A stretch of DNA of 64,000 nucleotides from a virus, in IMG/VR virus record IMGVR_UViG_3300024264_002047; one strand, written 5' to 3'. The notes under the pieces are model-generated. The model did no database searches, was not told where the DNA came from, and saw nothing but the letters and a program-made list of their open reading frames with translations. Positions 1,202 through 63,939 of the stretch are shown piece by piece; the first letter of the stretch is position 1, and each line of letters opens with the position of its first letter. The position numbers and the translations under genes were made by a program.

Positions 1202-1808
1202 TTTAATCATCGGCTTAATTGCCTTACCTGCATACGCTTATGTGCCTGACGAATTAGAGTTAGGTTATATAGGACTCAACAATACTCAGAAATTTCTAAT
1301 ACGTAATGGTATGACCGTACCATATAATAAACAAGTAGTAAAAAGAGTCGTTGTTGGTAAAGCAAGGATAATGCCAAATGGTGCAATTGTTAATTTACCG
1401 TTTGGACCTGATATGCTTCCATCGTTTGATGCTCTGCAAAATGATCCTAAATGGCAACATAAAGAAAGCATTGATCTATCACACTTAGAGTTTCATCAAT
1501 CACGAGACTTTAACTATCAATCTGAGTTTCTATTCATTCACGCTCTCGATGTCTTTTCAACATATAAAGGATTAAAGTATGATTGTATCTCAGAAGCAAA
1601 TCCAATAGTTGGTAAAGATCCATCTCTCTTAAAGCTTATACTTTTTAAAGTTACAATTATTAGTTTATTAGAAAGTATCTATGGTGCCTATCCAAGAGAG
1701 TGGAATGCGTTTCAAACTGCATCGGCATATACGACAGGAGTTGTAGTACAGAATAACTTTCAGGTTACAAAAGAAGCAAAAAGAAACCCACGCTGTTTTA
1801 AAAGATAA
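1173..1808 (+). CDS. hypothetical exported protein
   Basis: Signal-peptide-like N-terminus (LIIGLIALPAYA); overlaps the cyclase stop. Confidence 0.6.
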   Translation: MEFLSRLLSSLIIGLIALPAYAYVPDELELGYIGLNNTQKFLIRNGMTVPYNKQVVKRVVVGKARIMPNGAIVNLPFGPDMLPSFDALQNDPKWQHKESIDLSHLEFHQSRDFNYQSEFLFIHALDVFSTYKGLKYDCISEANPIVGKDPSLLKLILFKVTIISLLESIYGAYPREWNAFQTASAYTTGVVVQNNFQVTKEAKRNPRCFKR

Positions 1809-1858: not shown

Positions 1859-1969
1859 TTATGCAATCGTACTTATGCTATAAACTGTTAATCCCATGAA
1901 CATGGTAATCAACAAACACTCGATACAGATCTCACTATTAAGATGCAACTCTTTTATGAATTGCTTCAT
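1859..1969 (-). CDS. 36 aa Cys-containing membrane microprotein (not in ORF track)
   Basis: MKQFIKELHLNSEICIECLLITMFMGLTVYSISTIA; AGAGGAAG RBS upstream. Confidence 0.6.
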   Translation of the reverse strand: MKQFIKELHLNSEICIECLLITMFMGLTVYSISTIA

Positions 1970-2053
1970 CGCTTCTTCCTCTGTTGTTTATATTACGAGT
2001 TTTTAATACATCCCTCTGGATGCCACGGTTGAATCCAATATTTAAAAAATGTT

Positions 2054-2146
2054 TTAAACATTAGGACCCACCGCTAACAAAGACATACAAAAAATACATG
2101 CGAGTGCGCATACTTCAAGTTTATCTTTAAATTTCTCTAGGTCCAT
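2054..2146 (-). CDS. 30 aa Cys-rich membrane microprotein (not in ORF track)
   Basis: MDLEKFKDKLEVCALACIFCMSLLAVGPNV. Confidence 0.45.
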   Translation of the reverse strand: MDLEKFKDKLEVCALACIFCMSLLAVGPNV

Positions 2147-20247: not shown

Positions 20248-20451
20248 TTAATATAGTTCCAAGTCTAGTTGTACAGGCGCGTCTTTCTTAAAGAACATAC
20301 GACCTAATTCGTCAAGTTCTAAAGTAAATTTGTCGCCAGGTTCGAACGAAGTAGTACTAATTCGTACCATGTGAGTTTCGTCAGGATCTGGTTTATCAAT
20401 AAAATGTAAACCTTCTGCCGAAATTCTAAATTTAAAGTCACAATACATCAT
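20248..20451 (-). CDS. hypothetical protein
   Basis: ORF in operon. Confidence 0.55.
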   Translation of the reverse strand: MMYCDFKFRISAEGLHFIDKPDPDETHMVRISTTSFEPGDKFTLELDELGRMFFKKDAPVQLDLELY

Positions 20452-20861
20452 CTTGCCATCTCACTTATTTCTGTTGCTTCTTTTTGATTCATAATTGGAA
20501 CTGCATTTGATTTATGCATCGTAGCAATACCTTTTACGAGTGTACCCGTGTATTTGGGCGATTCCTTTTTAGTTCCATGACCACCGCCACCTGTAGAATG
20601 ACAAGAAGGATATTCTGGTACTTCTCTACGAAATGTATCGGTTGGTACAAATGGTTTAAACTCTTTGCTAGGTTTTACTTTACCTAAACAATAATTTATA
20701 TATTCATCAACAGTGTCGTACCTTAGATCATACATACCACTACGTTTCATTGCTTTGTTGTGCAGTCGCCAATTAAGCTCGTATTGAGCCATTTTAGCTT
20801 TAGTGATTTTAACTTTACGTTTCCGAGTGGAAATCGTTGATAGACCTCTTGCTAATGCCAT
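20448..20861 (-). CDS. conserved-type phage hypothetical protein
   Basis: C-terminal YTGTLVKGIATMHKSNAVPI. Confidence 0.65.
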   Translation of the reverse strand: MALARGLSTISTRKRKVKITKAKMAQYELNWRLHNKAMKRSGMYDLRYDTVDEYINYCLGKVKPSKEFKPFVPTDTFRREVPEYPSCHSTGGGGHGTKKESPKYTGTLVKGIATMHKSNAVPIMNQKEATEISEMAR

Positions 20862-20876
20862 AATATAAACTCCGTC

Positions 20877-21044
20877 AAAAAAGGGTGAAACAGTGGTCGC
20901 TTCTTTGGCGTTCCGTTCCTACTCAGTATGTCGGTAGTTCAGGTGTTGCTCCCGAAGGCAGTTCTCCGTCATGGGTCCTAAATGGTAGAGCTATTAACTC
21001 CGTGATTCCATCTCGCCGTCGTGGTTTATCCCACCGTTTCAAAT
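20877..21044 (-). ncRNA. candidate structured small RNA or cis-regulatory leader
   Basis: GC-richer intergenic segment, own promoter, 5' GAAACGGTGG pairs with 3' CCACTGTTTC, internal hairpins incl. cUUCGg, ends in U6. Confidence 0.55.
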
Positions 21045-21047
21045 ATA

Positions 21048-21076
21048 ATTATAACAAACTATTTTCCAAATGTCAA
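21048..21076 (-). promoter_or_regulatory. sigma70 promoter of the RNA candidate
   Basis: TTGACA-17-TATAAT; also TATAAATA at 21091-21098. Confidence 0.85.
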
Positions 21077-21089
21077 TAGTTTTTTAAGT

Positions 21090-21386
21090 TTATTTATAGT
21101 GCCTTTGACCTCTACCGTTAAAAGCGTTTAATTCAGATGAAATCTTCTTCTGATGTCTCTTAATGGCTTCAGCCTTTTTTCTTTTTCTTTTCGCAGTAGG
21201 TTTCTCGTAATACTCCCTTGCTCTAAGTTCTTTTAAGATTCCTGCTTTTTCAACGTTCTTCTTAAACTTTCTCAATCCTATATCAAACGGCATTGGTGTA
21301 CTCGGCCTTTTATCTTTAGGATGTCTTGGTCTTGGTGTCAAATCGACTGATAAGCCACCATTTCTATTATTGTTATTATTTCTCAT
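21090..21386 (-). CDS. rpsU: ribosomal protein bS21
   Basis: [40 protein letters not shown], with N-terminal extension. Confidence 0.9.
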
Positions 21387-21427: not shown

Positions 21428-21940
21428 TTATGATTTATTTTTAGCAGCCAATTTTGCAGCAGCTTTTTCTTGTTTCGCAATTTCTTTATCATATGCCTTT
21501 TGATCTACATAACCGTTCTCTAAAAGCTTTATTCTATTCAACATGTGTTGTGCTTGAGTATCTTCTTTGGATCCACCGTAGTAAGGAACACAATGACCTT
21601 CTTCAGACATCACTGATGTAACTGGTCTCCATCCATCTGTTGTTGGACAGTAGACATCAAAGTCTCCAAGGATACGACCGAACTTGCCTTTCATATCTTC
21701 GCCGTTTCGAGCAACTTGAGTTTTTAATACTGGACGCTTACCTAGTAATTCTTTTAATCTTTTACTTGCAGCTTTACCAAATAACTTTTCTACTTTATCG
21801 CTTGTTCTTGATTCTGGTGTATCAATTCCCATGATACGAACTCTTTCGTTTCGTAACCAGATTCCAAAGCCAAGATCAATATCGACATCAACGGTATCGC
21901 CGTCAACTACTTTAATTAAATTTGTTCTATACTCGTACAT
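21428..21940 (-). CDS. thermonuclease (SNase-like)
   Basis: VVDGDTVDVDIDLGF, RVRIMGIDTPESRT, GKFGRILG. Confidence 0.88.
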   Translation of the reverse strand: MYEYRTNLIKVVDGDTVDVDIDLGFGIWLRNERVRIMGIDTPESRTSDKVEKLFGKAASKRLKELLGKRPVLKTQVARNGEDMKGKFGRILGDFDVYCPTTDGWRPVTSVMSEEGHCVPYYGGSKEDTQAQHMLNRIKLLENGYVDQKAYDKEIAKQEKAAAKLAAKNKS

Positions 21941-22317
21941 TGTTGTTTCTTCCTATAATCGTTTACCGCAGTTTTAATTGCATCTTCCGCTAATACCGAA
22001 CAGTGGATCTTAACAGGTGGGAGTGCAAGTTCTTCTGCGAGTTCAGTGTTTCTAATTGTTTCTGCTTTGTCGATGTGGATACCTTTGACCCACTCTGTAA
22101 GGAGACTGCTTGAAGCAATTGCTGAACCGCATCCATACGTTTTAAAACAGGCATCTTCTATAACGCCGGAGTCATTAACTTTGATCTGTAATCGCATTAC
22201 GTCACCACATGCAGGTGCGCCTACCATCCCAGTTCCTACAGTAACATCTGTCTCATCCATCTTCCCTACATTTCTAGGGTTTTCATAATGATCTATTACT
22301 TTTTCACTATAGGCCAT
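21916..22317 (-). CDS. iscU: Fe-S cluster scaffold IscU
   Basis: MAYSEKVIDHYENPRNVG, APACGDVMRLQI, YGCGSAIASSS, PVKIHCS. Confidence 0.97.
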   Translation of the reverse strand: MAYSEKVIDHYENPRNVGKMDETDVTVGTGMVGAPACGDVMRLQIKVNDSGVIEDACFKTYGCGSAIASSSLLTEWVKGIHIDKAETIRNTELAEELALPPVKIHCSVLAEDAIKTAVNDYRKKQQCTSIEQI

Positions 22318-22360
22318 TAGAATCAACTTTTGTTGATGCCGTGTTAATTGTCTCGCTCAT
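22307..22360 (-). CDS. 17 aa upstream ORF overlapping the iscU start
   Basis: AAGGAG RBS, MSETINTASTKVDSNGL, late promoter just upstream. Confidence 0.4.
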   Translation of the reverse strand: MSETINTASTKVDSNGL

Positions 22361-22382
22361 GCTCGACTCCTTTGTATAAGTA

Positions 22383-22390
22383 TATTTATA
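22383..22390 (-). promoter_or_regulatory. T4-type late promoter upstream of iscU
   Basis: TATAAATA. Confidence 0.75.
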
Positions 22391-22396
22391 CTCAGA

Positions 22397-23557
22397 CTAC
22401 CACTGAGAAGGATCCTCTAAGATAGAAACGATTTGATGACCAAGCTCAATCCATTCTTCCTTTGTTTTGCCACGAGTTGTTTCTGCGGCTGTACCAATAC
22501 GAATTCCACTTGTCTCTTTAAAGTTTCGAGGATCGTTAGGAATACCATTTTTATTTACAGTGATACGATGTTTCTCTAAGATATCAGCTGCTTGTCTTCC
22601 ACTCAATTCAGAGTTAACTAAACTTACTAATATAATATGAGAATCAGTACCACCTGATAATACAGATAGAGTATCGCTGTTATGTAATACTGCTGCTAAT
22701 GCCTGAGCGTTCTCAACTACCTTTGCTGAATAATCTTTAAACTCTTCAGTATCAGCTTCAACGAATGCTTGTGCTTTGGCAGCAATGATATTCATTAATG
22801 GTCCGCCTTGAGTACCTGGGAAGATTGCTCCATTGAGCTTTCTTGTATAGTCAGGATTGTTCCATAATATAATTCCACCACGAGGACCACGTAATGTTTT
22901 ATGAGTTGTAGAAGTAACAACATCGGCATAAGGAACAGGATTGTCATATACACCACCGGCAATTAAACCAGAATAGTGAGCCATGTCAACCATAAGTAAT
23001 GCACCTACTGAATCAGCAATTGCTCTGAACCTTACCCAATCAATTTGTCTTGGATATGCACTTGCACCAGCAACGACAATATCAGGTTTGTGTTCTTGTG
23101 CCAATCGAGCAACTTCGTCGTAATCAATTAAACCGTTTTCATCAACACCGTAAGTATGAGCATTAAACCATTTACCTGAAATCGTAACTGGAGCTCCATG
23201 AGTTAGATGACCGCCACTTGCTAAATCCATTCCAAGAATTGTATCACCTGGATTTAAGAATGCTTTATATACAGCAAGGTTTGCGTTTGCTCCACTATGT
23301 GGTTGAACATTAGCAAATTCACAACCGTATAGATCTTTGAGTTTATCAATAGCCAAGGTTTCGACTTCATCCATAAATTCGCAACCGTTATAATAACGAG
23401 CACCTGGATATCCTTCTGCGTATTTGTTTGTAAACTCTGAACCACAAAGTTTCATAACTGCTTTCGAAGCAAAGTTCTCTGAAGCAATTAGTTCTGTGGT
23501 TAATTTTTGGCGTGATAGTTCTTTTTGGTAAATCTTGTTAATTCTTTCATCTAGCAT
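22397..23557 (-). CDS. glyA: serine hydroxymethyltransferase
   Basis: [43 protein letters not shown]. Confidence 0.97.
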
Positions 23558-23558
23558 A

Positions 23559-23795
23559 TTATTGCTGTTCCATCCTATATTGTGTTTCTCTTATTAAATG
23601 ATAATAGGTACCTATCAACCTTTCGTCTTCAAAGATTTGAGGTTGAACGGACGTACCTATGCCTTTTTCTTTTAATTGATTATAATACATTGTCAGCCCA
23701 ATGTCAAGGAATTTATAACCCCCATAATGTTTGGCTGCATGTTCTTTAGCTTTATCGCAGAAAGCGCAAGCTCGAGTACCATAGATGTAGATCAT
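23559..23795 (-). CDS. glutaredoxin-like protein
   Basis: [20 protein letters not shown]. Confidence 0.75.
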
Positions 23796-24121
23796 GCCTT
23801 TGGTGTTTTATCTTTCCAATCGTTAATGTAATCAAGTTGCTTTGCTTGACTCCACTCTTGAGATAACTCTTCGTTATCTTCTGCAAAATATTTGAGTGCT
23901 TTAACTGTATCTACAATATCAATGTTAGTAACGGTTTCACCAAGCCAACGCTGACTGAACTCCTTTACTTCTTCAGCTTCAACAGATTCCTGAGACCATA
24001 ACTTGGCAAGCTTATCAGTACAATGAACTTCTTCATTCCACCTTTGTACTTCTTCTCTTGGAATAATATATCTCTGTTTAAACATTGAAACAGTATCAAC
24101 TACTACATAATCACTTTTCAT
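23792..24121 (-). CDS. hypothetical protein
   Basis: ORF in operon. Confidence 0.6.
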   Translation of the reverse strand: MKSDYVVVDTVSMFKQRYIIPREEVQRWNEEVHCTDKLAKLWSQESVEAEEVKEFSQRWLGETVTNIDIVDTVKALKYFAEDNEELSQEWSQAKQLDYINDWKDKTPKA

Positions 24122-24197
24122 TTTCTTTTCCTATAAAAATAACAATGCTATTAGGAATCCTATATTGAGTCCTAATGAACATGCTAATAATAAATCT

Positions 24198-24377
24198 TTA
24201 CCGAACGAGTCCCTTTCGACTATTACTTCTATCGGCCTCTCTCCGTGCCAATTGTTCATACAACGGCTCCTCTGCTACCGCAGGAGATTTAATGCATACC
24301 CTTGTATTAAAAGGTTGTCCACACTCTCTTGCGTATACTGTCTTACCCTTATCGGGACTTTCAAATATCTGTGCCAT
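24198..24377 (-). CDS. 59 aa hypothetical protein (not in ORF track)
   Basis: MAQIFESPDKGKTVYARE...; GGAG RBS. Confidence 0.6.
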   Translation of the reverse strand: MAQIFESPDKGKTVYARECGQPFNTRVCIKSPAVAEEPLYEQLARREADRSNSRKGLVR

Positions 24378-24386
24378 AATATACTC

Positions 24387-24566
24387 CTATACTACTTTAT
24401 TAATTATAAAGAAAGATAACATCATTGAACCGAATACTAGACATTGTAATATAGTGGCCCAAAAGATTTGTCTCATTGGGTGTATCTCTACAATCTTTTC
24501 TACCCAGCTTTCACTTGGTGATAGATTCACTACTTGTAATATCTTTTCTTCAGTACTTCCTGTCAT
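24387..24566 (-). CDS. 59 aa membrane protein (not in ORF track)
   Basis: MTGSTEEKILQVVNLSPSESWVEKIVEIHPMRQIFWATILQCLVFGSMMLSFFIINKVV. Confidence 0.65.
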   Translation of the reverse strand: MTGSTEEKILQVVNLSPSESWVEKIVEIHPMRQIFWATILQCLVFGSMMLSFFIINKVV

Positions 24567-24828
24567 TGTCTAACCTTCTTGTAATTTTGTTAATTATATT
24601 TTCTGCTTCAGGATAATCATCCATCATTTCGACGACTTTATCAATCATATCTAAATCAAGTAACATATCGTTTCGACGATTCAACCAACTCTCTTGTTGT
24701 TTCATCTGTTCGATTTTCATCTGTTCCATGTAATGCATATCATGTAACTTTTTGATGAATTGATTTACTTGTAACCATCTGTGATAATCTATATTGCCGT
24801 CCTTATCAAATGGTTTTTCTTTGCTCAT
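24550..24828 (-). CDS. hypothetical protein
   Basis: ORF in operon. Confidence 0.55.
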   Translation of the reverse strand: MSKEKPFDKDGNIDYHRWLQVNQFIKKLHDMHYMEQMKIEQMKQQESWLNRRNDMLLDLDMIDKVVEMMDDYPEAENIINKITRRLDNDRKY

Positions 24829-25241
24829 TTAAATAGCCCTATCCTTTCTCCCGCTGCTTTACGACGATCATACTCTTCGGGAGTAGAAGGGTAACGCCAT
24901 CCCCATGCTGCACCAAGAGCCATAAAGGTTCCTGAGTACGCAACCGCTTTCCAATTACCTGTAAATACAATCATACACAATAAAGCAAATGCCATAAATC
25001 CTAACATCATATACTTTGCCTTTTGCGGAAATACTTTTTTGGTTTCCCAGTTTGTTAAAAATGGTCCAAAGAGTTTATGGTTATATAACCAGTTGTGCAT
25101 TCTGTCTGAACTCTTTGCGAAACAATACGCAGCAAACACTGCAGGTATACTAAAAGGAATGCCTGGTAAGATAACACCTACATAAGCAACTCCTAAGCTA
25201 AGGAATCCTAATCCACCCCATGCTAACTTTTTCATATTCAC
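24825..25241 (-). CDS. YbaN/DUF454 inner-membrane protein
   Basis: GVILPGIPFSIP...FAKSSDRMHNWLYNHKLFGPFL..W...KAK. Confidence 0.85.
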   Translation of the reverse strand: MNMKKLAWGGLGFLSLGVAYVGVILPGIPFSIPAVFAAYCFAKSSDRMHNWLYNHKLFGPFLTNWETKKVFPQKAKYMMLGFMAFALLCMIVFTGNWKAVAYSGTFMALGAAWGWRYPSTPEEYDRRKAAGERIGLFK

Positions 25242-25501
25242 GATAGTACAGCCTTAATATGTTCTGCCGCAATAATCACAGCGTCTTGTCCGCCAATTCT
25301 TACAGGCATTGATTTATCCCAAGATAGATATACCGTATCACCTTTGTTTAAATGGGTTGCTTCAGGACCTACTGATAATATGATACCAGGCTCTGATGCA
25401 GTTTGTTTTACGTCAGCTGATAATATAATACCACCTGCTGTTGTTTCTTCTTTTGGAGCAGCTGCTACTAGTACTTGCTCTCCAATCATTTGAATACTCA
25501 T
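25238..25501 (-). CDS. groES: co-chaperonin GroES-like
   Basis: EETTAGGIIL mobile loop, GIILSVGP, GDTV. Confidence 0.8.
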   Translation of the reverse strand: MSIQMIGEQVLVAAAPKEETTAGGIILSADVKQTASEPGIILSVGPEATHLNKGDTVYLSWDKSMPVRIGGQDAVIIAAEHIKAVLS

Positions 25502-26325
25502 TATATTTTCCTTCGGTTTATTGTGGAAGTTAGTCCACTTCTTTTTTCTTCAATCTCCATGTTCATTACTTGACTGTTATCAATTAATGGTTTAGCAGGA
25601 GTCTCACGCTCACGTTTAAATGCGGCGGTACTTACAATTAATAACATTATTGCCAAAGGATCAAATACGAATATAATTATAAGTATAATCCATCTGACAG
25701 CATTGTCATAATATTCTTCTGCCTCAGTTCCGTATATCATATCAGCGATATATTTAACAGGACCGAGTTCCGATTCTTGTTCTAACTGAAGTCTCTGTAT
25801 AGGTAACTTCTGTTCGTTATATTGTACAATACTATCCACTGCTTTGTCAATAGTTATTGCTAAATTATTTCTTTCTTCTGTTTGACGTCCATTAACATAA
25901 TTACGATCTTTAGGTTGTGAAGTCTGTAATACGTAATCTAATCCTTCGATTCTATCTTGTGCAGCTTTAAGTTTGGATTGCTCTGCAGCTATTCTTGTAT
26001 CAATGATACTTGCTTCGAGAGAATAGGTATCTCCAGTTAAAGCAGAATCAATATGAGCTTTAGAAAGGAATCCAAATATACCCATACTTGTAATTAACAT
26101 TAGGACTATAACAGCGGCTGTAAAATAACCACGAACTAAATTATTGATTCTATCCCATTCGTAATGTAACCATGCTGCTGAAACAAGTTTACCAAACTCA
26201 AGCACAGTTGCCATAACGGCAATACTGAGAGCAGCGCCACTAAAGATTGTCATTAATCCTATGATACTAAAATATGCAGCGGTTGCTGCTAAAGTGAGGG
26301 ATGTTGTTAAAGTTAACCATTTCAT
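25501..26325 (-). CDS. conserved-type phage membrane protein
   Basis: Four TM segments flanking a coiled coil; ITSMGIFGFLSKAH, FVFDPLAI. Confidence 0.7.
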   Translation of the reverse strand: MKWLTLTTSLTLAATAAYFSIIGLMTIFSGAALSIAVMATVLEFGKLVSAAWLHYEWDRINNLVRGYFTAAVIVLMLITSMGIFGFLSKAHIDSALTGDTYSLEASIIDTRIAAEQSKLKAAQDRIEGLDYVLQTSQPKDRNYVNGRQTEERNNLAITIDKAVDSIVQYNEQKLPIQRLQLEQESELGPVKYIADMIYGTEAEEYYDNAVRWIILIIIFVFDPLAIMLLIVSTAAFKRERETPAKPLIDNSQVMNMEIEEKRSGLTSTINRRKI

Positions 26326-26333
26326 AATATTAT

Positions 26334-27536
26334 TTATTTGTAATAAGCAAATGTCTCTTTGAGTCCGACAATCAAATCTTCCATCATACCATTAGTATGT
26401 AAGGGAGTAGGTGTAATTCTAAGTCGTTCTTTACCAACATCGACTGTTGGATAATTAATTGGTTGCACATATAATCCATGTTCGTTTAATAACCTATCTG
26501 ACATTAGTTTACATTTCTTTGCATCTCTAACCATCACTGGTAATATATGAGTGCAACTCTCTTCGTGTAATTCTATACCTTCATCAATTAACATATTCTT
26601 TAAAGTCAATGCTCGTTCTTGATGAGTTTCTCTTAAATCATTATGGTCTGCCAAGTAACGAACAGAGGCAATTGCGCCTGCAGCCATAACAGGTGACATA
26701 CTTGTTGTAAAAATAAATCCACTTGCGACTGATCGTATAGCATCAAGAACAACACTATCACCAGCAATATAACCTCCATGACAACCAAACGCTTTTCCCA
26801 AGGTTCCATTTACAATATCCACTCTATCCTGTGATAAAATCTTTTCGCAGTATCCTGCGCCTGTTTCTCCGTATAAACCTACGGCATGTACTTCATCTAT
26901 ATATGTCATTGCTCCATACTGATCTGCCAAATCGCAAATCTCTTCAATAGGAGCAACATCTCCATCCATACTATATACTGATTCAAATACAATACATGGT
27001 ACATAACCAGCTTCAACTGTAACTTGTAAACATTCTTCTAACGATTCCATATCATTATGTTCAAATACATGTTTATGAGCGCGACTATGTTTCATACCCA
27101 TAATCATTGAGGCATGATTCTTATTGTCCGAAACGAAACATATATCAGGAATGATACGAGATAGAGCAATTAACGCCCATTCGTTTGCTACATAAGCAGA
27201 AGTAAATAATAAACCGCTTTCTTTTTTATGCAGGTCTGCTAAAACCTTTTCGAGAGTAACATGATAATGAGAGGTACCGCCAATATTGCGAGTACCTCCA
27301 CTACCACTGCCTGTCTTTAACAATGCGGTTTGCATTGCGTCAATTACATACTTGTTTTGTCCCATTCCCAAATAATCATTTGAGCACCAGTTAACAATTG
27401 TCTTAGGGGAATAAGGTGAGTACCAAGTCGCTTTAGGAAAGTTTCCTTTATCACGAACGATATCGTTAAATACTCTGTACTTACCTTCTTCCTTTAATTT
27501 GTCAACTACGTTTTGGAACGGTTGTTTGTTTATCAT
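26334..27536 (-). CDS. hemA: 5-aminolevulinate synthase (C4/Shemin pathway)
   Basis: [63 protein letters not shown]. Confidence 0.95.
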
Positions 27537-63862: not shown

Positions 63863-63939
63863 TGGCGCGGCTGATAGGAGTCGAACCTATGACCTTCGGT
63901 TTCGTAGACCGATATTCTATCCAGCTGAACTACAGCCGC
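63863..63939 (-). tRNA. tRNA-Arg(ACG) with encoded CCA
   Basis: GCGGCTG/CAGCCGC acceptor stem, TCGGT-CT-ACG-AA-ACCGA anticodon arm, GGTTCGACTCC T-arm. Confidence 0.95.

Follow-up and report, generated by a model that had tools for sequence, protein, structure and literature searches.

Of the non-coding RNAs of marine T4-like phages, which are abundant viruses, next to nothing is known. T4 itself makes two small stable RNAs, species 1 and species 2 (rnaC and rnaD), of unknown function (PMC9697503). In marine T4-like phages, the structured RNAs manA (RF01745) and wcaG (RF01761) are placed 5′ of varied genes (PMC2864571), and manA forms RNA-only oligomers (bioRxiv 10.64898/2026.07.01.735769). 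Finally, ribosomal protein bS21 binds a non-ribosomal RNA at the P6 region of OLE RNA, with involvement of a k-turn and of an AGUAGG strand (PMC12054373, the only such paper found).

The RNA gene described here, found behind a bS21 gene in a T4-like phage, works most like the orphan structured RNAs of these phages (rnaC/rnaD, manA, wcaG) and is a member of none of them. It resembles rnaC and rnaD (139 and 119 nt) in size and in belonging to a T4-like phage; those RNAs, however, are encoded in the tRNA cluster and classed as late, whereas the present one has an early-type promoter and lies mostly outside tRNA arrays. With manA and wcaG it shares a position 5′ of varied genes in marine T4-like phages, but its motifs are different, it is built of two separable modules and it has no Rfam match. 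OLE, for its part, is an RNA of ~600 nt, mostly from Bacillota, with an anti-SD CCUCCU; the family here has no CCUCC. We conclude that this is a new RNA family within a known kind, the orphan structured phage RNAs, that it is in no catalogue searched, and that its separable modules and well-supported pseudoknot are what sets it apart. At present it stands as a well-supported orphan family, kept by many uncultured marine T4-like phages.

The locus and its probable transcription unit

The window, that is the whole 64-kb stretch of DNA analysed, is part of a T4-like phage with nearly every gene on the minus strand. Ligase-like and RNase H-like ORFs are recognisable by sequence, and profile searches of the window confirm glyA, iscU, 5-aminolevulinate synthase, an SNase-like nuclease and bS21. 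The auxiliary genes iscU, glyA and 5-aminolevulinate synthase are found at 21916-27536 (minus strand), within ~6.5 kb upstream of bS21. IscU scores above the TIGR01999 cut-off and the nearest annotated matches of bS21 are enterobacterial or from Acinetobacter, which suggests a gamma- or betaproteobacterial host. The 5-aminolevulinate synthase presumably points to a host outside these two groups.

Coordinates are reported in Table 1. The RNA has bS21, which possesses its own promoter at 21421-21393, as upstream neighbour, and no terminator was found between the two in the window. Its downstream neighbour, in the main gene context only, is a gene for a 137-aa protein, for which a query of the ESM Atlas gave no match. 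The RNA segment has a GC content of 51%, against 37% for the whole window, as the initial annotation had remarked, and every sequence feature listed there is present.

Table 1. Features of the RNA locus in the window and, in the last line, of a second element in related phages
Feature	Position	Strand	Remarks
137-aa gene, function unknown	20448..20861	-	phrog_27048; SD at 20873-20870
U-run (U6)	20877..20882	-	after P1; probable leaky 3′ end
Non-coding RNA	20877..21041	-	165 nt including U-run, in the gap after bS21
P1 3′ strand	20886..20896	-	pairs with 21041-21031
Pseudoknot 3′ strand	20900..20903	-	followed by invariant C-R-A (20899-20897), just before P1
Module P long irregular arm P4/P5	20907..20951	-	GC/GC base, AAC/AAC loop, GAA/GRA loop
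CUAC/GUAG helix (P5) in long arm	20937-20934 with 20922-20919	-	4/4 pairs two-sided, 97% paired
Module P hairpin P3 (ACYG-N-NNNN-GG)	20952..20962	-	loop 20957-20954 is the pseudoknot 5′ strand
Module K	20966..21030	-	GAUAAA junction, CC/GG pair, symmetric AYGAC/AYGAC loop, GG/CC pair, k-turn-like motif
V1, optional variable helix capping the k-turn	20981..21012	-	8-46 nt in homologues; the AUGG..CCAU helix
P1 5′ strand	21031..21041	-	three P1 pairs exceed the tree-null maximum
Sigma-70-type (T4 early-type) promoter, TTGACA-17-TATAAT	21048..21076	-	12/12 plus extended TG
Phage bS21	21090..21386	-	98 aa, N-terminal extension; PF01165 E 4e-17, phrog_21469
~520-550-nt element	L379 1746-2300; L377 1880-2408	+	also L070-L073, L102, L129, L138, L200, L212, L215, L500

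The 5′ end of the RNA is placed 6 nt past a perfect sigma-70 promoter, and the predicted start (~21041) coincides with the first base of the outer stem, P1. The pattern TTGACA-17-TATAAT occurs 21 times in the window, always on the minus strand, where 0.22 occurrences are expected. The promoter was found in 45 of 52 homologues, and in 44 of the 52 the distance from the end of the -10 box to P1 is 4-9 nt, which holds for both main gene contexts. Together with the covarying fold described below, this constant spacing upholds the earlier proposal of a standalone structured RNA with its own early promoter. The seven copies that lack one would need to be cut out of the bS21 transcript. A late promoter, TATAAATA at 21098-21091, had been proposed as well, and does not survive the comparison: it is kept in only 4 of 37 loci. 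It overlaps the codons for Tyr, Lys and stop at the end of bS21, most relatives have lost it through synonymous or conservative substitutions, and its 11 occurrences in the window are no excess over the 8.3 given by chance. Elsewhere in the window, a tRNA-Arg(ACG) at 63863-63939 (minus strand) is directly followed by a perfect sigma-70 promoter at 63853-63825.

At the other end, P1 is followed by a run of U, as had been noted, and at least four U are present within 15 nt after P1 in 43 of the 52 copies. This U-run must be leaky, because in some loci the next gene or tRNA has no promoter; read-through is deduced from the promoter-less 137-aa gene and tRNA that stand behind the RNA in locus L175. 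In one lineage a promoter lies after the RNA, so that the RNA is made as the 3′ UTR of bS21 and the next gene is served by its own promoter.

Conserved fold and modular build

Homologues were collected by searches with the neighbouring proteins, by motif scans of viral, metagenome and genome collections, and from contigs encoding more distant bS21 proteins. About 60 distinct homologues were obtained, one per phage record searched, and all examined copies lie on contigs of T4-like phage type. A first parse gave 52 distinct full-length copies, whose cores share 81% identity on average (minimum 63%), and the last one 62 distinct sequences with the pseudoknot module. Fused homologues span 130-190 nt from P1 to P1.

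The segment almost certainly encodes a real folded RNA. Taken alone, the window copy folds no better than shuffled sequences (z = -1.05), hence the case for structure is made by covariation among homologues. The core was aligned on conserved motifs, leaving pseudoknot and helix positions free, and scored by a G-test with average-product correction against a tree-simulated null of 150 replicates (custom R-scape-like code). Three pairs of P1 and two of the pseudoknot, five in all, score above the 99th percentile of the null maximum (48.8). In an independent MAFFT alignment, 14 pairs showed two-sided changes against 6.3 in shuffles, including 4/4 pairs of the pseudoknot and 4/4 of the CUAC/GUAG helix; P1 is misregistered in that alignment. 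The pairs of P5 and P2 are nearly always complementary, none being individually significant.

These data support a conserved fold, predicted from the aligned homologues, in which P1 encloses a k-turn-like arm where an insert may be present, a long arm of irregular pairing, and a pseudoknot of 4 bp. The pairing of the two ends, already pointed out in the initial annotation, corresponds to P1, which counts 11 bp in the window copy and 8-16 bp in nearly all homologues. The pseudoknot helix takes 16 sequence forms in 62 copies, and its four pairs are kept in 61, 62, 61 and 54 of them, the fourth being missing in one subtype. On a tree built without the pseudoknot columns, joint changes amount to 12, 11 and 3, against single-side figures of 11/12, 10/10 and 3/3, which makes about two dozen paired changes. 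The helix may form within one molecule or between two, which covariation does not separate, and a manA-like oligomer is also compatible with it.

As to the internal structure, the outer stem and the CUAC/GUAG helix of the initial annotation belong to the conserved fold, but the pseudoknot and the k-turn had been missed, and the optional AUGG..CCAU insert had been treated as part of the core. The GGCG/CGCC pairing proposed there gives way to other, covarying partners: the GG pairs with the CC of GACCC, the CGA belongs to the k-turn, and the 3′ GC pairs with the GC before AAC at the base of the long arm, both switching together to GU/AC in homologues. A cUUCGg hairpin is seen in 10 of 52 copies only, and its bases are in fact a strand of the pseudoknot. 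Within the long arm, the CC/GG pair is formed in only about half of the copies, and the tip accepts an optional helix of 20-35 nt, V2. Nor does the fold, a pseudoknotted multi-way junction, resemble the rod with a bubble expected of a 6S-like decoy, another of the suggestions made at first, and it has no Rfam match.

The k-turn-like motif consists of an unbulged GA (21014-21013), a 3-nt bulge (20980-20978) and a second GA (20977-20976). C-helix, 3-nt bulge, tandem G.A / A.G pairs and NC-helix are all present as a sequence pattern. Both GA steps are invariant in the 28 copies aligned, and the bulge varies (UAG, UAA, AAG, GAA, GAG or AAU). The CC/GG pair of the same module becomes GC/GC and CU/AG in homologues, and AC/GU in L373. 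No gene of the L7Ae family (PF01248) was found in five partial phage records. A 46-nt V1 insert, present in L200, L237, L254, L227 and L377, seems to contain another k-turn pattern (GA, helix, AAU bulge, GA), placed in tandem with the one already described.

The SAM-I riboswitch is similar in architecture only. In both RNAs P1 closes a multi-way junction, the second arm contains a k-turn, with the same polarity, and a pseudoknot reaches a strand of the junction. In SAM-I, however, the pseudoknot is made by the loop beyond the k-turn; in our RNA that loop varies freely and the pseudoknot comes from a separate hairpin. The residues of P1 that bind SAM are also absent, and there is no Rfam match.

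The RNA is made of two fused modules, K and P; in relatives each can occur by itself, or the two can occur together with a closing stem apiece. P1 closes the pseudoknot module alone (~100 nt) in L380 and L385, between bS21 and a 144-aa gene, and the k-turn arm alone in L373. In L455 and L466 the modules follow one another in tandem, both starting with GG-GAAU and both closed by a stem of their own, and the window copy is the fused form. K-turn alone, pseudoknot alone, tandem and fused forms thus make up a natural deletion series, by which the function of each module can be tested directly, and the small size of the family (100-190 nt) makes synthesis and probing feasible. Across the family, the types of V1, those of V2 and the form of the long arm (CC or UU) are mixed in many ways, a sign that phages may have recombined with one another within this gene.

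Gene contexts and possible function

The RNA lies directly after bS21 in 51 of 62 copies and elsewhere in nine, two copies being too near a contig end. The nine have no bS21 nearby, and none was found in their partial records (9-45% complete). Besides the main context, the RNA is found in front of a 70-aa membrane-like ORF, where some copies are transcribed divergently from the gene upstream, and in front of a 448-aa gene. These three contexts are unrelated, and every copy lies 5′ of some gene. A promoter separates the RNA from the next gene in L102, L135, L212, L055, L059, L377 and L379, and in L175 a tRNA-Thr stands between the RNA and the 137-aa gene. Conversely, phage bS21 genes with no RNA behind them are common (L021, L024-L030, L361, L383). 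Given these varied contexts and the many bS21 genes without it, the RNA depends on neither neighbour.

Related phages harbour other elements in the same surroundings. A second conserved non-coding element, of ~520-550 nt and with its own promoter, lies upstream of bS21 in many relatives (Table 1) and is absent from the window; in L500 it is elsewhere in the genome, and the copies of L377, L379 and L500 gave no Rfam match. In L376, a different RNA-like element (~1345-1495, plus strand) occupies the slot between the promoter and the 70-aa gene, and ends in a tRNA-like T-arm and ACCA; neither ARAGORN nor Rfam calls it. In L375, the tRNA array located behind the 70-aa gene includes a manA RNA at 1896-2112 (plus strand; 59 bits, above gathering).

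We favour the view that the RNA works in trans, as a protein-binding or self-assembling RNA, with a probability of roughly one half. Consistent with a phage-encoded stable non-coding RNA, it has its own promoter and a covarying structure, and no conserved ORF. Counted for an action in trans were also the fixed promoter spacing, the three unrelated contexts, the single copy per record, the occurrence of the modules alone, in tandem and fused, the RNA-like element of L376, the tRNAs and manA of L375, and the presence in metatranscriptomes. Conserved positions are short loop motifs, helices tolerate inserts of 8-46 nt, and no guide-like or antisense segment was found in the RNA. The location of every copy 5′ of some gene counts against this reading, since a role in cis predicts it too. 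So do the seven copies with no promoter of their own, and the fact that neither a phage CsrA gene nor one of the L7Ae family was found in five partial genomes.

The locus would accordingly be a phage gene for a stable, trans-acting structured RNA. Judging from the conserved promoter, host sigma-70 RNA polymerase would start at the first base of P1, probably early in infection. The transcript is predicted, on the strength of covariation, to fold into two compact modules, the k-turn arm and an arm that is locked by the pseudoknot and has A-rich internal loops, with P1 clamping both RNA ends together and perhaps protecting them. Transcription would partly stop at the U-run and partly read into the next gene or tRNA, and the bS21 mRNA could end in the same structure. 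Most likely, the RNA would then act through its shape and serve one or two proteins as a decoy or a scaffold, each module offering an independent surface for binding or assembly. These proteins would probably come from the host and take part in translation, RNA turnover or anti-phage sensing. If the RNA is a decoy for a host regulator or a defence sensor, it would constitute a new RNA counter-measure.

Alternatively, the RNA could bind the phage bS21 protein, either in an OLE-like particle or as a feedback element in the 3′ UTR of the bS21 mRNA, a proposal we regard as doubtful. The prevailing position after bS21 was also recovered by motif-based searches that made no use of bS21, and several copies are made only as bS21 3′ UTR. 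There is a precedent, as bS21 sits on OLE RNA at an SD/anti-SD-like duplex and promotes the k-turn (PMC12054373), and the SD-like AGUAGG of OLE P6 is present on the 3′ strand of P5 in 32 of 62 copies. However, the anti-SD CCUCC is found in 0 of 52 copies, the covariation of P5 leads away from AGUAGG, the RNA is missing behind many phage bS21 genes, and shared descent alone accounts for the adjacency. The nine copies with no bS21 nearby also speak against it, weakly, given how incomplete their records are. Should binding to bS21 or to the ribosome prove true, it would bear on the role of phage bS21 (PMC9723584) and extend the OLE-bS21 precedent to phages. A ribosome-associated RNA, one of the initial suggestions, is a possible reading.

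A leader acting in cis is unlikely. It would be a riboswitch-like pair of aptamers or an attenuator, with closure of P1 setting read-through into the next gene. A k-turn and a pseudoknot in a multi-way junction are riboswitch-like features (SAM-I, c-di-GMP-II), the RNA is always 5′ of a gene, and in the main context the next SD lies less than 20 nt past P1 with no other promoter. In addition, manA and wcaG of marine T4-like phages were proposed to be riboswitches (PMC2864571). Yet the downstream genes, encoding the 137-aa protein, the 70-aa membrane protein and the 448-aa protein, are unrelated, at least 7 distinct copies are separated from the gene by a new promoter and that of L175 by a tRNA, and either module can be lost. 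No conserved alternative helix overlaps the terminator or the SD, the competing GUGG..CCAC hairpin of the initial annotation being found in 5 of 52 copies only. The switchable attenuator then envisaged for the 20861 gene meets the same objections, the downstream gene differing by lineage; given the nine copies in unrelated slots and the varying downstream neighbours, the RNA is not a dedicated attenuator.

At least as unlikely is a more elaborate scheme, in which a mix-and-match two-module RNA would bind phage bS21 or the host 30S platform, forming an RNA-plus-protein device that takes over translation initiation.

More unlikely still is a ribozyme or processing signal that would cut or mature early polycistronic transcripts. 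The compact pseudoknotted core of ~100 nt, with its invariant ACYG, AAC and C-R-A, and the position at transcript boundaries, once beside a tRNA, would suit it. Against it, no Rfam ribozyme matches, the order of helices is unlike that of HDV-like, twister, pistol or glmS folds, and the 5′ end is the predicted start, which leaves nothing to cut off. Very improbable, too, is a mere protective cap shielding early mRNA ends from nucleases: P1 does begin at +1 and may equally serve to close the 3′ end of bS21, but a simple hairpin would suffice, the invariant loop motifs and the maintained pseudoknot would be left unexplained, and only one copy is present among the 21 promoters of the window. That a small peptide accounts for the conservation, an alternative named at the outset, is scarcely credible, for although most copies contain short ATG frames, the proposed start (MTENCL..) is present in 5 of 52, insertions of 19, 20 and 34 nt change the reading frame, products differ between copies, and substitutions follow base pairs.

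Catalogue searches and occurrence

That the family could not be recognised at first is in line with the searches: with the covariance models of Rfam 15, at gathering or E-value thresholds, neither the window nor more than 10 homologous loci gave a match. The best score, with S774, was 26.7-30.6 bits (gathering 48), mostly over the promoter. Blastn against GenBank phages returned only promoter-like chance matches, and T4 rnaC and rnaD showed no sequence or model match above noise. Literature searches gave no description of the family; the set of Fremin et al. 2023, whose supplement holds 8,495 IMG/VR candidates of 29-151 nt (PMC10690425), lay outside the comparison and may list a fragment.

Several further candidates were discarded. 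A Csr sponge was considered in view of the 8 GGA of the window copy; the conserved GGAs lie across helices, the k-turn and internal loops, and a copy contains 0-5 ANGGA. As to an rRNA or 16S platform mimic, suggested by the order of short motifs, comparison with the 16S, 23S and 5S RNAs of E. coli rrnH gave no profile or model match, and alignment scores mostly within those of shuffles. The longest complement to mRNAs of the window, 13 nt, equals the best shuffle, which disposes of an antisense RNA. Resemblances to pfl/ZTP, ykkC, cobalamin, glmS, c-di-GMP-II, RNase P and HDV-like RNAs concern positions that vary among homologues, again with no Rfam match.

A 1-kb stretch of the locus is present in marine metatranscriptomes of many studies, and the labelled runs are marine or estuarine. 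Twelve runs recorded as RNA hold part of it, and four of these more than half of its words, all as assembled contigs, which give presence of the stretch but not its strand, ends or level. In one run, X1, depth was 408 on a contig inside the RNA against 53 and 72 on the flanking contigs. This was not taken as evidence for a discrete transcript, since such depth sums related phages, is flat per contig, and the difference is absent in the other three runs.

A pattern scan of GTDB yielded 100 loci that were scored with the model, of which only two, L304 and L333, matched. Both are T4-like phage contigs in one Rhodobacteraceae bin, so that no bacterial copy was found in GTDB, where a diverged host version would escape the scan. 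This bin, Rhodobacteraceae bacterium Water_Bin34 (L304, L333, L361, L362), includes several contigs of T4-like phages, which together bear two copies of the RNA and two bS21 genes of phage type; these contigs are probably misbinned.
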